NCBI GenBank assembly: GCA_035297105.1
Contig: DATGZO010000006.1
Location: 5,415-69,414, forward strand
Direction of reading: 5' to 3'
Length of the DNA stretch: 64,000 nucleotides
Source of the DNA: Thermoplasmata archaeon
GTDB lineage: Archaea > Thermoplasmatota > Thermoplasmata > Lutacidiplasmatales > UBA184
Each line of letters opens with the position of its first letter. Within the stretch, counting starts at the first letter, position 1. The translations under genes were made by a program, and so were the position numbers. Under the pieces are notes generated by a model, which was given only the letters and a program-made list of their open reading frames with translations, was not told where the DNA came from and did not search any database. Of this stretch, positions 482 through 5,466 are shown in pieces.

Positions 482-2395
482 CTACGGGTCGAACTCGCGC
501 TTCCGGACCCGTTCCACGATGTGAGAACGAAGCTCGGCTCGGGACAGGGTGCGCGTGTCCTTCGTCCCCCGTACGCGAAGGGCCACCGTCCCATCGGCGG
601 TCTCCTTGTCGCCGAGCACCAGGACGTACGGGATCCGTTCCACCTCGGCCGTTCGGACGCGCTTGGAAAGCGACTCCTCGGTTCCGGCGACCTGTACCCG
701 GATCCCGTCCGCCGCCAGCTCTTGAGCCAGTCCCGAGGCCGCCTCGGCTTGGCGCTCCGTCACCGGAAGGATGCGCGCCTGGACCGCGGCGAGCCAGGGA
801 GGGAGTCGTCCTCCGGTGTGCTCCAAGAGGACTCCCAGGAACCTCTCGAACGACCCCAGGATGACCCGGTGGATGACCACGGGCGTGTGGAGCTGGCCGT
901 CCGGGCCCTGGAACTTGAGGCCGAACCGCTCGGGGATCTGGTAATCGAGCTGGATGGTGCCCGTCTGCCACGGACGTCCGAGGCTGTCCCGGATGTGGAT
1001 ATCGATCTTCGGACCGTAGAACGCACCCTCGCCCGGTGAGACCCGGTACTCGATACCGGATCCGCGCAGGATCTTCTCCAGGATCGCCTCGGCCCGGTCC
1101 CAGGTCTCCTTCTCGCCGAGGAACTGGGCGGGGCGCGTGGAGAGCTCGTAGCTCCATTTCAGGTGGAACGTCGAGAACGCCCGGGCGATCCAAGCGAGCA
1201 GGGTCTGGATCTCCGGCTCGATCTGGTCCTCCGTCACGAAGAGGTGGGCGTCGTCCTGGATGAACTCGCGCACGCGGGTCAAGCCGTGGAGCGTGCCGCT
1301 CGCCTCGAGACGGTGAAGCGGCGCGAACTCGGCCAGGCGGAGCGGTAGCTCGCGATAGCTCCGGGCCCGGGACTTGAAGATCAGCATCGAGCCGGGGCAG
1401 TTCATCGGCTTCCAGCCGAACTTGCGATCGTCGGCCTCGGTGAGGAACATGTTCTCCCGGTAGTGTTCCCAGTGACCGCTGGTCTCGTAGACGGACTGGG
1501 CCCACAGGAGCGGGGTCCGGATCTCGGAGTAGCCCGCGTCCTTCAGGTGCTCCCGCACGAATCGCTCCAGCTCCTGGAGGACGATGACCCCGTTCGGGAG
1601 CATCGCCGGGAACCCGGGGGCTTCCTCAAAGAAGGTGAACAACTCGAGCTTCTGCCCAAGCGAGCGGTGGTCTCTCGCCTCGGCTTCGGAACGGAGCTTG
1701 AGGTATTCCTTCAATCCGGCTTCGGTCGGGAACCCGACGCCCCGGATCCGCTGCAGCGTGACGGTCGCCTCAGGCTTGTCGGGGGTGATGGCGGAGAAGC
1801 CGAGGATGTGGACCCCGGCGAGCCAGCCGGTATCCGGCACATGCGGTCCTCGGCAGAGGTCGACGAACGTGCCGGTCTCGTAGTAGGAGACCGGCTCTCC
1901 CGGCGGGATGTCGCGGATGTACCGGAGCTTGTGGGGGTTCGCGGAGAACAGCCGTTCGGCTTCCTCACAAGTGACCTCCCGCCGTTGGAACGGCTCCTTG
2001 GCGTGGGCGCTCCGGCGCACCCCGGTCCGGACGGCATCGAGGTCCGCGGGAGTCAGCGGCCGGACGTCGAAGTCGTAGTAAAATCCCTCGTCGGTCGGTG
2101 GCCCCACGGTGGGGAGGGCTTCGGGGATCGTCTCCACGAGCGCCTTGGCCACGAGGTGCGCGGCCGAGTGTTGGAGGATCTCGCGTCCCGCCCGGTCATC
2201 GAAGGAGAGCGGGGCCACGTGGGCCGACGCCGTGAGCGGGCTCGAGAGGTCGGCCGGCCGACCGTCGACGAGTCCAGCGAGGCACAGCGTCGAGCCCGGG
2301 GCGTCCCACTGACGGAGGGCATCCCCCACGGTCGTGCCGCGAGCCACGTCGAGGGCACGACCGTTCGGGAAGGTCAGATGGATCTCGTCCGCCAC
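482..2395 (-). CDS. thrS: threonyl-tRNA synthetase (class II; TGS plus bacterial-type editing domain with HxxxH and CRGPH motifs)
   Basis: The ORF 482..2482 contains the TGS domain, editing-domain motifs HSAAHLV and CRGPH, and a class II core (...FFEEAPGFPAMLPNGVIVLQELERFVREHLKDAGYSEIRTPLLWAQSVYETSGHWEHYRENMF...). The first 29 aa of the ORF are Arg/Ser-rich low complexity. The start is probably GTG at 2395 (VADEIHLTF...), preceded by GGAGAG. Confidence 0.88.
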   Translation of the reverse strand: MADEIHLTFPNGRALDVARGTTVGDALRQWDAPGSTLCLAGLVDGRPADLSSPLTASAHVAPLSFDDRAGREILQHSAAHLVAKALVETIPEALPTVGPPTDEGFYYDFDVRPLTPADLDAVRTGVRRSAHAKEPFQRREVTCEEAERLFSANPHKLRYIRDIPPGEPVSYYETGTFVDLCRGPHVPDTGWLAGVHILGFSAITPDKPEATVTLQRIRGVGFPTEAGLKEYLKLRSEAEARDHRSLGQKLELFTFFEEAPGFPAMLPNGVIVLQELERFVREHLKDAGYSEIRTPLLWAQSVYETSGHWEHYRENMFLTEADDRKFGWKPMNCPGSMLIFKSRARSYRELPLRLAEFAPLHRLEASGTLHGLTRVREFIQDDAHLFVTEDQIEPEIQTLLAWIARAFSTFHLKWSYELSTRPAQFLGEKETWDRAEAILEKILRGSGIEYRVSPGEGAFYGPKIDIHIRDSLGRPWQTGTIQLDYQIPERFGLKFQGPDGQLHTPVVIHRVILGSFERFLGVLLEHTGGRLPPWLAAVQARILPVTERQAEAASGLAQELAADGIRVQVAGTEESLSKRVRTAEVERIPYVLVLGDKETADGTVALRVRGTKDTRTLSRAELRSHIVERVRKREFDP

Positions 2396-2594
2396 GGTTC
2401 TCTCCGAGGAACGGCGACCGCTCCCCCTTCTAAAAGGCTTGGCTGACCGCGAGGGCGAGCGGGGACGGCGGGGCCGGCCCAAGAGAGCGCGGAGGCTAAC
2501 GCCCGCGCGTATCCGCCGTCGTTCCGACCTCGGGCCGTACCGATCCGTGTCGTGCGCTCAGCTCGCCCATTCACTCATCACCGTTCAGCTGGTT

Positions 2595-3287
2595 CTAGTC
2601 TTCATCATCGCGCGGCGACACGGTTGGGGAATCGGAAGGAGGATTGTCGACCGGAAAGACGAGGTCCTCGAGCACGCGGTCGAGGTGGAAGATGCCGCCC
2701 GCGGCCCCCACTTCGGTGAGGCGTGTCTGTTGGGTCACGTCGAACGTGCCGTCGACCCACGTGGGTCCGCCGGCGGCCAGCGAGCGGATCAGGATCCAGT
2801 CGGGGTCCTGCTCGCGCGGGGAGACGATCACATCCGTGATGCCGATGCTGCGCGCGAACTGGACGAGAGTGGGAGCGTCGGTCTTGTCCGGCTGGGTCCG
2901 GGCCGTCTGCACCCGACCCTCCACGAGCTCGACCTCGAACGCCCAATCCGTGGAGAGCTTCCACGCGCGCTTCAACTCGACCGAACTGCGCAGGTACGAG
3001 CTCGAGAGCACGGCCCGCTGCGCGCCCGCGACGAGGATGTCGATGGCCGCATCCGCGGTGGCCACCCCGGAATCCACCCAGAGGTCCATGTCACGGGAGA
3101 GCTCCTGGACGTACTCCAGTTGAGGAACACCCCGCTCGATTCCGTCGAGGTCCACGAGGTACAATCGCTCGAAGTCCGGCTCCAAGCGGTCGACCACATC
3201 GAACGGGTCCAGGGCGGGCCCCGAGCGCGTGTGGACCCGCACCGGACCCTTCGGGCCCGGCAGGCATACCTGCCCTCTGCGGAGCAT
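2595..3287 (-). CDS. HisA/HisF-family TIM-barrel protein (ProFAR isomerase-like)
   Basis: The translation includes ...DPFDVVDRLEPDFERLYLVDLDGIERGVPQLEYVQELSRDMDLWVDSGVATADAAIDILVAGAQRAVLSS..., which is typical of the HisA family (LxVVDLDGA...). The ORF extends to 3536 but its first ~80 aa are low complexity, so the internal Met at 3287 is taken as the start. Confidence 0.55.
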   Translation of the reverse strand: MLRRGQVCLPGPKGPVRVHTRSGPALDPFDVVDRLEPDFERLYLVDLDGIERGVPQLEYVQELSRDMDLWVDSGVATADAAIDILVAGAQRAVLSSSYLRSSVELKRAWKLSTDWAFEVELVEGRVQTARTQPDKTDAPTLVQFARSIGITDVIVSPREQDPDWILIRSLAAGGPTWVDGTFDVTQQTRLTEVGAAGGIFHLDRVLEDLVFPVDNPPSDSPTVSPRDDED

Positions 3288-3396
3288 CAGGCACGGGATC
3301 AGGAGAGGGGCCGAGGGAGAGGCCTCCGCCCCGCTGGAGGCGGCTCGAGCCGACGTCGGGGATCCGTTCGCCACGGGCAACAGACCTCGCGGGGGG

Positions 3397-5466
3397 TTAT
3401 CCTGTTTGGCGGTCCCGACCCGGGCGCTTTTCCCCCGGCGGGAGATGGCCCTTTCGCCAGGAGGTAGAGGGCAGCTGACGGTGGTCCGAGTCGGCAACGG
3501 CTGGCCGCTGAGGAAAGTCCCCTCTCCGGGAAACACGGGGTCGGGTCGGAGCCCGACGGGCGAGAGTCCGAGCTCCGGAGCAGAAACGACACAGCCCGAC
3601 GGTACGGTGATGGTGGTGCACCGGAGGTTCCGTCGGGATATGATGAAACGGCCGCCTCCCCGGGAGCAAGCCCTGACTGACGGGGTGAGGAGTTTCCCTG
3701 ACCGTCGAGGAGAGCGCGGAGTCGAATGTTGCCTGAAACGGAAAGGGGCTTACTACTGCCACCTGGCCGCACCGGCGAGAAATCGCCGGTGCGTTACCCG
3801 CGCCCCACCGTCGCGCGAACCCTGATCGGCGTCCGAGCGATCTCACTCCGGGTAGGGCCAGCCCGACCGTCCCCTGGACCAGAGGCGCGACGCGATCGCC
3901 CGAGACGGATACGGCGGTCGCGTGGAACGGCGACCCCGATAGCCAATGCCGTGAGTTCTGGGAAATCAACCCGCGGTCGAGAGCGAGGGCCAAGCCGACG
4001 TTCGAGAGAATTGCAAGGCTCATCGGCGGGACCGTAAGGTTCGTGGGTCCGCCCGGTCCCCACGTCAGGTTGGTCGGACTCGCCGACGGCCCGTTCCAAA
4101 CGAAGATCGAGGCGTTCGCCACGTTGGGGAGGGCCTTCGCGAGATCGAGGCTGAATGTGTAGCTCGAGTTGATGTTCAGGAGGATCAAGTTCGTGAGCGC
4201 GCCGGCCGACGGGCCACCCACCGCGGCGAGCAGGCCGCTCGCGGGCGAGTTCACTCCCATGGGAGCGGCGAAGGCGCCGACGCGCTGGGCCAAATCCGCG
4301 TACGCGAAGTAGGCCGGGGACGGCGCCCCGGTGTCGGTGAACCAGGAGCCGGGAGTGTCGCTCTCGAGATTGTAGTAGTCCGCGGATGTGAGGTCGAGCG
4401 GGAGAGTTTGGAGGATCTCCGCCGACACGTACGTCGCCAGGTAACCCCCTGCGATCTCGTCCCCCTGGGGAACGAGCGTTCCGCTTCCGAGCTCGTCGGC
4501 GAGCACGCTCAGCCGGCACGTCGGGCATGCCCCTTGGAGCTCGGACAGCGTCGAGTTCACCCGGTTGGGGAGCGCGGACCCTCCCTGGAGCGAGGCGAAC
4601 CAAATCGCCGGCGGTTCCGGGCCATTGATCGTGCCGGCGGGATAGACGTGGATCGCGATTCCTGAAAGGTTGGGGCCGTTCGTCGCTACGTCGTCGGTGA
4701 TCCACGTGGATTGGGAGCCGCCGGCCCCGACTCCCCCGATTCCGAGGATGGGTGTGGAGGGGTCGACCGTGCGGATCGCCGAGACGTACGACCGGACGAG
4801 TTTAGCGAACCCGACGGGGGTCGTCCCGATGTCCTGGCTCGAGTTCCAGGACGGCCACGGAACCCCGAAATGCGTCCACATCAGGGGCTCGTTCCCGATT
4901 TCCCAGTACGTCGGCGTGAAGTGGAGGTTCTGGATCGAGTAGCTTACGATCGCCGCCGCGAGCGAGGAGTTGTTGACCTCGGCTGGCAGGGTGACGATCG
5001 ATTCGCAATGCACCCAGCCGCACCATGCTACGAACTCCGGATAGGTCGTGGCGGGGGAGACCGCGGTCCCGTTCGCATTGTAGATGACGCCCTGATCCGA
5101 ATCTCCCAAGGGGTCGAAACGGTCTCCGAGGGCCCCCCCGGGCCAACGCACCATGCGGGCGCCTGTCGAGTTGATGGCGGCGGCATTCGCCGAGGTCAGG
5201 GTCTGGTCTGCCCGAAGGTCCACTCCGAGACGCCCTGCGGTCAGCGGAACGGGGGAAGCGGTAAGCGCCGTCAGGTTCGCATTTGCGGGCGGGCCGGGAG
5301 GCACGACACCGGGCGGGGACGGCGTGGGGCTCGGAGCCGGGTGGGGGGGGAATTCCACCAGAACGTAGACTCCGACGCCGGTGATCAGGAGGACGAAGCA
5401 GAGCGCGATCGCGACGGTGGTTCGGTCCCACCCCGTGGGGGGTGGGGGTTCTCTCTTCCGCGACAA
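3397..5466 (-). CDS. membrane-anchored secreted glycoside hydrolase, clan GH-A-like (TIM barrel with YWEIGNEP catalytic motif)
   Basis: N-terminal TM/signal anchor (TVAIALCFVLLITGVGVYVLV), then a Pro-rich linker. The catalytic domain has ...VRWPGGALGDRFD...YWEIGNEP... (acid/base Glu in the NEP motif as in GH5/GH30/GH39) and many N-x-S/T sequons. The protein-like sequence ends near aa ~540 (about nt 3850). The last ~145 aa of the ORF are low complexity and run antisense to the putative rnpB. Confidence 0.6.
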   Translation of the reverse strand: MSRKREPPPPTGWDRTTVAIALCFVLLITGVGVYVLVEFPPHPAPSPTPSPPGVVPPGPPANANLTALTASPVPLTAGRLGVDLRADQTLTSANAAAINSTGARMVRWPGGALGDRFDPLGDSDQGVIYNANGTAVSPATTYPEFVAWCGWVHCESIVTLPAEVNNSSLAAAIVSYSIQNLHFTPTYWEIGNEPLMWTHFGVPWPSWNSSQDIGTTPVGFAKLVRSYVSAIRTVDPSTPILGIGGVGAGGSQSTWITDDVATNGPNLSGIAIHVYPAGTINGPEPPAIWFASLQGGSALPNRVNSTLSELQGACPTCRLSVLADELGSGTLVPQGDEIAGGYLATYVSAEILQTLPLDLTSADYYNLESDTPGSWFTDTGAPSPAYFAYADLAQRVGAFAAPMGVNSPASGLLAAVGGPSAGALTNLILLNINSSYTFSLDLAKALPNVANASIFVWNGPSASPTNLTWGPGGPTNLTVPPMSLAILSNVGLALALDRGLISQNSRHWLSGSPFHATAVSVSGDRVAPLVQGTVGLALPGVRSLGRRSGFARRWGAGNAPAISRRCGQVAVVSPFPFQATFDSALSSTVRETPHPVSQGLLPGRRPFHHIPTEPPVHHHHRTVGLCRFCSGARTLARRAPTRPRVSRRGDFPQRPAVADSDHRQLPSTSWRKGHLPPGEKRPGRDRQTG
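3456..3768 (+). ncRNA. rnpB: probable RNase P RNA (type A-like)
   Basis: A GAGGAAAGUCCCC motif at ~3511-3523 is the universal 5' strand of P4. A matching 3' strand ACGGAAAGGGGCUUAC sits at ~3738-3753, and GGGGCU pairs with AG(U)CCCC with the conserved bulged U (a covariant form of the E. coli CCGG/CCGG P4). Putative P1 pairs GCCAGG...GGCAG (3456-3475) with CUGCC.CCUGGC (3756-3767). A short P3-like hairpin GUCGGCaacgGCUGGC lies between P1 and P4. The total of ~313 nt is typical for archaeal RNase P RNA. No covariance model could be run, so the ends are approximate. Confidence 0.5.
3770..3791 (+). other. perfect 9-bp hairpin with GAAA tetraloop (CACCGGCGA-gaaa-TCGCCGGTG) directly after the putative rnpB 3' end
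   Basis: Inverted repeat read directly from the sequence. It could be a 3' processing or termination structure for rnpB, or an independent stable stem. Confidence 0.4.

Follow-up and report, generated by a model that had tools for sequence, protein, structure and literature searches.

RNase P RNAs of the archaeal type A (Rfam family RF00373), as described from Methanothermobacter, Pyrococcus and Haloferax, contain helices P1–P4 and the conserved regions I and V (CR-I and CR-V), and are encoded in a single copy in genomes that also carry the genes for the protein subunits Rpp21 and Rpp29. The shadow or over-extended open reading frames (ORFs) of high-G+C genomes are stop-free frames without coding signal that lie opposite a real gene. 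Both occur in the stretch of DNA analyzed here (the window), which comprises 64,000 nucleotides (nt) of contig DATGZO010000006.1 from a peat Thermoplasmata archaeon (assembly GCA_035297105.1, designated G000; 1.87 Mb, 94%-complete), with a local G+C content of about 68%. The window carries a plus-strand RNase P RNA gene that shares all of the features listed above with the type A RNAs, including a full-length match to the family model, and a minus-strand ORF for a glycoside hydrolase (GH)-like protein (3397-5466, 689 amino acids, TTG start) that covers the whole RNA gene antisense. We are highly confident that the RNase P RNA is genuine and that the GH-like ORF overshoots into it by way of a lost stop codon in stop-poor, G+C-rich DNA. 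As in shadow ORFs, the overshooting part is a stop-free, signal-less frame opposite a real gene, which is seen in all of the relatives. Unlike typical shadow ORFs, it is joined in frame to a real gene without its usual stop, and therefore gene callers report one 689-amino acid protein. The features of the RNA gene are as follows.

3456-3767, plus strand: RNase P RNA, archaeal type A (Rfam match at 3459-3764, with P1 extended by GCC/GGC)
3510-3522, plus strand: CR-I, the 5' strand of P4, GAGGAAAGTCCCC, read in the sequence and aligned to the model consensus
3738-3753, plus strand: CR-V, the 3' strand of P4, ACGGAAAGGGGCTTAC, read in the sequence and aligned to the model consensus
3426-3433, plus strand: T-rich, TATA-like element GCTTTTCC, about 25-30 nt upstream of the 5' end of the RNase P RNA
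3768-3793, plus strand: trailer hairpin of 11 bp, capped by a GAAA loop, that immediately follows the RNase P RNA

In a covariance search of the whole window against Rfam 15 (cmscan), the RNaseP_arch model RF00373 matched 3459-3764 of the plus strand with 197 bits, as compared to a gathering score of 84 (E 4e-57), and the match was full-length, covering model positions 1-288 of 288. Both of the universal P4 strands are present (CR-I, GAGGAAAGUCC; CR-V, ...GGGGCUUAC), and the 5' and 3' ends of the RNA are joined by the P1 terminal helix, which is formed by 3459-3475 with about 3750-3764. Since pairing is possible between GCC (3456-3458) and GGC (3765-3767), P1 extends to the limits that had been proposed for the RNA in the initial annotation, and the full RNA, the P1 extension included, most likely spans 3456-3767. 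That annotation, which had read an RNase P RNA at 3456-3768 from the letters alone and had suggested running a covariance model, is thus borne out by a strong full-length match, and the P4 strands, the P1-like helix, the small P3-like hairpin and the GAAA stem that it listed are all present at the places given. The RNA departs from the RF00373 consensus in P3, where it has an insertion of 21 nt in place of 4 nt, and the RNAs of the genus carry a covarying GAAA-capped hairpin that abuts the 3' end of P1 and lies outside the Rfam model.

A covariance search of the whole G000 genome turned up no RNase P RNA other than this one. Of the 31 genomes of the genus, 21 scored above the cut-off (among the 9 that are at least 90% complete, 7 did so, G000 counted), and 19 of the 20 other genomes with a match contained a full-length RNase P RNA, with 173-201 bits. 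One unpublished genome, G019, was counted in the genus searches for the RNase P RNA, the GH-like paralogs and the attachment core, and provides one of the 19 rows of the hairpin alignment and one of the 20 control genomes for antisense frames described below; no conclusion depends on it. The genes for Rpp21 (45.3 bits) and Rpp29 (29.3 bits) were both found above their cut-offs in G000. Upstream of the RNase P RNA, an A/T-containing hexamer lies at an equal distance in 20 of 20 genomes of the genus, in flanks that are otherwise G+C-rich, and the known position of the archaeal TATA box suggests that GCTTTTCC may be the promoter element of the gene. Judged from its sequence, 3456-3767 of the plus strand is the only gene of this genome that encodes an archaeal RNase P RNA of type A, the catalytic component of the enzyme, for which cleavage activity is predicted.

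The stretch with the RNase P RNA recurs in many peat and soil metagenome runs, and the RNase P RNA was also represented in RNA libraries. Assembled contigs from two peat RNA libraries of one study covered 3467-3769, and one of them was identical to the window at 3706-3767 and then continued into the Illumina adapter, so that the junction after 3767 coincides with the end of the extended P1. An RNA contig of a co-occurring relative does not stop at the RNase P RNA but includes the relative's own hairpin with a GAAA loop, after which the adapter follows. The stretches 3200-3458 and 3792-4300 were almost bare, except for one 2.4x contig at 3840-3995; bare stretches in these libraries are no sign of silence.

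For the trailer hairpin, 94.7% of the cells were paired when the trailers of 19 genomes of the genus were aligned, as compared to 27-47% with a slid partner, and 7 of the 11 pairs changed on both sides among these 19 sequences. The covariation score was 0.547, as compared to 0.142 in shuffles, and was reached by none of 500 shuffles. In the relative G010, a block of 57 nt (3743-3799) is 100% identical to the window, whereas the neighboring DNA is 79-82% identical, and in about half of the trailers of the genus TTA or TAA stands directly behind the hairpin. These results indicate that the 11-bp GAAA hairpin is conserved by covariation across the genus. It lies in the 3' trailer of the primary transcript, where it probably acts in 3'-end formation or in the protection of the precursor, and it offers a lead on how the 3' ends of archaeal RNase P RNAs are made. 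In about half of the genomes of the genus, this hairpin is immediately followed by a second one, which is longer and carries a T-run in the 3' arm (loci L017, L021, L026, L027, L028, L030, L032, L034 and L019).

The ORF on the opposite strand was divided into the following parts, with reference to its syntenic ortholog in G010.

3928-5466, minus strand: conserved GH-like part, amino acids 1-513 (N-terminal membrane helix, clan GH-A barrel and beta-sandwich)
3797-3927, minus strand: unconserved C-terminal tail, amino acids 514-556 (no homolog is conserved beyond about amino acid 513)
3794-3796, minus strand: TAA used as the stop codon by the G010 ortholog; here it is out of frame with the ORF (frame +2)
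3397-3796, minus strand: formal run-on of the ORF, amino acids 557-689 (reads through the hairpin, then opposite the whole RNase P RNA and on into the promoter region)

The 46 homologs of the GH-like protein, which come from metagenome-assembled genomes (MAGs) of Thermoplasmata and from peat or soil metagenomes, are mostly 520-580 amino acids long and cover at most 73% of the query. Their conservation stops at ...VPPMSLAILSNVG, at about amino acid 513. RWPGG, E193 in GNEP, HVYP and E325 in VDE were invariant in 39 sequences, and E193 and E325 are the predicted catalytic glutamates (acid/base and nucleophile). The AlphaFold2 model of amino acids 1-513 had a predicted local distance difference test score (pLDDT) of 87.2 and a predicted template modeling (TM) score of 0.83; it starts with an N-terminal helix, its last strand is formed by amino acids 483-488, and the pLDDT falls below 50 from amino acid 497 onward. 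The top Foldseek matches of the model were GH51 and GH79 enzymes (E 8e-17 to 1e-14, TM 0.53-0.70). At the sequence level, conversely, Pfam and NCBIfam searches with the ORF matched no family, phmmer against the PDB gave E 0.54 at best, and a profile search of the PDB yielded nothing beyond a GH51 enzyme that matched over 49 residues (E 0.0045).

The model suggests that this is a real gene of the clan GH-A glycosidase type, with a GH51/GH79-like fold. With the GH51 alpha-L-arabinofuranosidases (PDB 2y2w, 2vrk and 6d25) and the GH79 beta-glucuronidases/heparanases (PDB 3vny and 5bwi), the protein would share the (beta/alpha)8 barrel and the C-terminal beta-sandwich at E about 1e-16 and TM 0.6-0.7, and it has the RWPGG and NEP motifs and the two invariant glutamates. 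It is only 12-17% identical to these enzymes, has no Pfam or NCBIfam match and, unlike them, has an N-terminal membrane helix, an invariant C314/C317 pair and an unconserved C-terminal tail; as judged by these searches, it is not a sequence-level member of GH51 or GH79. The label of glycoside hydrolase given in the initial annotation thus has no backing from Pfam or NCBIfam and holds for the fold and the motifs, on account of the Foldseek placement and the invariant residues.

The GH-like family is multi-copy (noted at G000:C16, G000:C19 and G007:C2), with 6 matches in G000 and 13 in G007. Some of its copies lie in open frames of 1000-2000 codons, and some database homologs are fused to PKD domains. 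In G103 (L040, G103:C36, about 2030-3325), about 1.3 kb of unrelated DNA replaces the GH-like gene 3' of the RNase P RNA, so that this flank is variable within the genus.

The remainder of the ORF was compared with G010. The window is collinear with G010 on both sides, at 79% and 82% identity. The ortholog is 74% identical and ends at a TAA that abuts the hairpin, and the identical 57-nt block (3743-3799) sits directly behind it. Frame-by-frame translation of both genomes revealed that the same TAA is present in the window (3796-3794, minus strand), but in frame +2, the distance from the codons for SNVG to the TAA being 197 nt in the window versus 207 nt in G010. The first 40 or so residues of the G010 tail align to the frame of the window ORF (z 5.2), whereas the last 35 residues align to no frame of the window (z below 2). 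Because about 90 nt before the TAA (3883-3797) cannot be aligned between the window and G010, the change is not assignable to one indel. A resemblance of "IAREP/IARTP" in frame +2 was not significant and was rejected. Past the missed TAA, the frame stays open for 133 more codons, until it ends at a TAA within the conserved GGTTATCC motif.

The base composition also changes along the ORF. The G+C contents at codon positions 1/2/3 are 0.60/0.55/0.83 in the conserved domain, 0.77/0.65/0.77 in the tail (3927-3799), 0.70/0.60/0.66 in the stretch antisense to the RNase P RNA and 0.71/0.62/0.65 in the whole run-on (3397-3796), and the third-position G+C signal is gone after about 3960. No homologs of the run-on (amino acids 557-689) were found outside its own 90% cluster, and the relatives of the locus on metagenome contigs were all at most 50% identical, with RNase P motifs in none of 72 loci. 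Every homolog has an unconserved tail, with a median of 66 amino acids after the last strand as compared to 200 in the window.

Open frames across the RNase P RNA are common in these genomes. In each of the 20 genomes of the genus that were examined, at least one antisense frame was stop-free over the entire RNase P RNA, a control that we regard as decisive; by our own arithmetic, a random frame at about 68% G+C meets a stop about once per 46 codons. In G012, a stop-free frame of 612 codons crosses the RNase P RNA; it was considered as a second gene with a lost stop and was rejected, since it shadows an MscS-like gene, which itself stops 400 nt before the RNA. The overlap in the window is therefore an open-frame artefact that results from the stop-poor composition together with the lost stop. 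The tail of amino acids 514-556 is probably translated but unconstrained, and the run-on of amino acids 557-689 is judged not to be a protein domain.

The initial annotation had described about 145 amino acids of low-complexity sequence after a last domain-like segment at about amino acid 540, and had left the choice between a translated antisense tail and a frameshift near the true 3' end. The antisense ORF exists as it described and does have an unconserved tail, and the alignment of GH homologs that it proposed ends before the tail, at about amino acid 513. Because the conserved folded part ends at about amino acids 490-513, the unconserved tail is longer, about 176-200 amino acids. Of its two options, a frame problem near the 3' end is supported by the out-of-frame TAA, and the open antisense frame, although it exists, is not beyond chance, given the stop-free frames in 20 of 20 genomes.

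The following course of events would be consistent with these observations. The GH-like gene, which would encode a membrane-anchored enzyme with a functional part extending to about amino acids 490-513, converges on the RNase P RNA gene. The enzyme domain would be followed by a fast-evolving, unconstrained tail, and the usual stop would be the TAA abutting the hairpin, as in G010. In the lineage of the window, changes in the length of the tail (197 versus 207 nt) would have put this TAA out of frame, so that the reading frame continues past the hairpin, opposite the entire RNase P RNA and into the promoter region. Any translated extension would be bounded by the end of the GH-like mRNA.

Several points weigh against a genuine RNase P RNA that is overrun through a lost stop. 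Pfam models found neither Pop5 (PF01900) nor Rpp30 (PF01876) in G000, a negative that says little, since the Rpp30 model also misses the Sulfolobus control; these proteins may be divergent in G000, or their genes may lie in unassembled DNA. G010 is the sole syntenic ortholog by which the "usual" stop of the GH-like gene is defined. The RNA evidence consists of assembled contigs from one study, which place the sequence in RNA libraries but do not prove transcription and reveal neither the strand nor the expression level nor the true ends. The tails in the family are 50-115 amino acids long and all unconserved, and a disordered tail of any sequence may have a role. Finally, the reading frame really is open, and translation may extend into the antisense stretch. 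A rival proposal is that the 689-amino acid protein is made as written, with a functional Arg/Gly/His/Pro-rich extension antisense to the RNase P RNA, with which the open frame from 5466 to 3397, the recurrence of the ORF in independent contigs and the one low-depth RNA-library contig over 3840-3995 agree. We regard such an extension as very unlikely: no homolog aligns past about amino acid 513, the closest ortholog stops before the hairpin, the third-position G+C periodicity is missing there, stop-free antisense frames over the RNase P RNA are universal in the genus, and the stretch is already constrained in sequence by the RNA on the opposite strand.

The lost stop itself could be accounted for in two other ways. 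A sequencing or assembly error, such as the homopolymer miscount near 3850-3900 that was suspected in the initial annotation, would leave the TAA at 3796-3794 as the real stop; in its favor, G010 matches this TAA and the surrounding 57 nt at 100% identity and has the TAA in frame, and there are C and G runs within 3840-3880. Logan contigs from two other samples of two studies, neither of which is flagged as the source of the window, nevertheless agree with the window throughout 3727-4300 and 3689-4300, without a single difference or gap, and nine JGI contigs carry the ORF, in its 689-amino acid form on five and in 570-amino acid versions on four, one of which is a one-residue variant. Since the contigs from the two other samples are identical in this stretch, across 3689-4300, an isolated assembly error is unlikely, and we consider the suspicion to be in all probability mistaken. 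Alternatively, the GH-like gene may be decaying as an incipient pseudogene, with the lost stop as one symptom. There are at least five other paralog matches in the genome, the gene is missing at this position in G103, and its usual stop is lost; the conserved part of 513 amino acids is, however, intact, with all of the invariant residues and a strong third-position G+C bias, and it folds confidently in the model, which makes decay improbable.

The explanation that we prefer, a genuine RNase P RNA and a GH-like ORF that overshoots through a lost stop, has consequences for annotation. About a quarter of the 689-amino acid (or 570-amino acid) protein in public gene calls is translated antisense ribozyme, and such calls pollute protein databases and can mask an essential RNA gene. 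For archaeal MAGs with a very high G+C content, the practical rule is that nothing can be learned from a frame that is open across a structured RNA, and that the stop of the ortholog and the third-position G+C decide. The overlap as originally submitted is a correct and ordinary finding.

The comparison with G010 also revealed an insert at the 3' end of the RNase P RNA gene. The extra DNA between the two genes in G010 amounts to 4.25 kb, with an insert of 4,227 bp that is bounded by a direct repeat of 27 nt, equal to 3743-3769 of the window. A tyrosine recombinase gene (PF00589, 39 bits; cut-off 27.1) lies beside one repeat, and behind the intact RNase P RNA of G010 stands a hairpin carried by the element. 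When the core was searched for in degenerate form, at least two copies were found in 9 of the 80 genomes of the genus with a match; the unpublished genome G109 is one genome counted in this search, and no conclusion rests on it. The site in the window and the genomes with more than one core copy are listed below.

3743-3769, plus strand, window: candidate attachment site (attB core), unoccupied; comprises the 3'-terminal 25 nt of the RNase P RNA and the 2 nt beyond
G010: core copies 4,254 bp apart; insert L038:5390-9616; integrase PF00589, 39 bits
G076: core copies 5,162 bp apart; insert L041:2399-7516; integrase PF00589, 73 bits
G058: core copies 4,962 bp apart; insert L042:860-5796; integrase PF00589, 66.1 bits
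G096: core copies 4,160 bp apart; insert L043:824-4955; integrase PF00589, 64.6 bits
G134: core copies 1,479 bp apart; insert L044:722-2172; no integrase
G119: core copies 959 bp apart; insert L045:873-1798; no integrase
G057, G102 and G155: core copies on different contigs

In the integrase-bearing inserts, the repeats are 25-44 nt long and each equals the 3' end of the genome's own RNase P RNA. The integrases of G076, G058 and G096 are 34-44% identical to that of G010, and five of the six inserts have a lower G+C content than both of their flanks. The window has one core copy, the single copy in G000, and no insert and is therefore an empty site; the only integrase relative in G000 is distant (34% identity) and lies on another contig (G000:C1:122114-122806, minus strand). 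The core had no match in the IMG/VR viral contigs.

It is possible, though we would stop short of calling it likely, that 3743-3769 and the adjoining hairpin are the attachment site of undescribed integrase elements of 4-5 kb in peat Thermoplasmata, which would restore the 3' end of the RNA and bring a replacement hairpin. If so, the RNase P RNA gene would be a further class of stable-RNA integration target beside the tRNA and tmRNA genes, and the trailer hairpin would be needed for expression of the RNase P RNA. Such elements bear on which conserved RNA genes mobile elements can exploit, and the attachment site would be of modest novelty.

Some further features of the inserts were observed. 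The integrases of G010 and G076 occupy opposite insert ends, and that of G076 is split into two frames. The short inserts of G134 and G119 (0.9-1.5 kb), which have no integrase, may be remnants or miniature elements. The element-borne trailer of G010 is of the second-hairpin type, and this type may mark former integrations. A 398-amino acid ORF in the G010 insert has a sub-threshold PriCT_1 match (19.9 bits versus 21.1) and no clear third-position G+C signal, and the label of primase was not adopted.

Two features were noted on the other side of the RNase P RNA gene. The divergent gene at 2598-3290 (minus strand) has a weak His_biosynth match (PF00977, 40.5 bits), far below the HisA equivalog cut-offs, and a GGTTATCCTGTTTGG motif between the divergent genes (3395-3409), which recurs in several genomes of the genus, may be its promoter. 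A candidate C/D-box small RNA lies at 2555-2612 (minus strand) and begins 15-18 nt ahead of the stop codon of the His_biosynth-like ORF; it scores 45.1 bits with snoPyro_CD (gathering score, 45), has a terminal stem, and its C, D', C' and D boxes are clear.

The closest described counterparts of the inserts are the tyrosine-recombinase elements that integrate into the 3' ends of tRNA and tmRNA genes. A review of the archaeal tyrosine recombinases covers this mode of integration and never mentions RNase P (PMC8371274), and no paper in the one library searched describes integration into an RNase P RNA gene, which is no proof of novelty. As in the tRNA- and tmRNA-targeting elements (PMC8371274), a PF00589 integrase lies beside a repeat of the 3' end of a stable RNA, the target gene is restored after the insertion, and a sister genome retains the empty site. 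Unlike those elements, the inserts have the RNase P RNA gene as their target, of which the window holds the empty site only.

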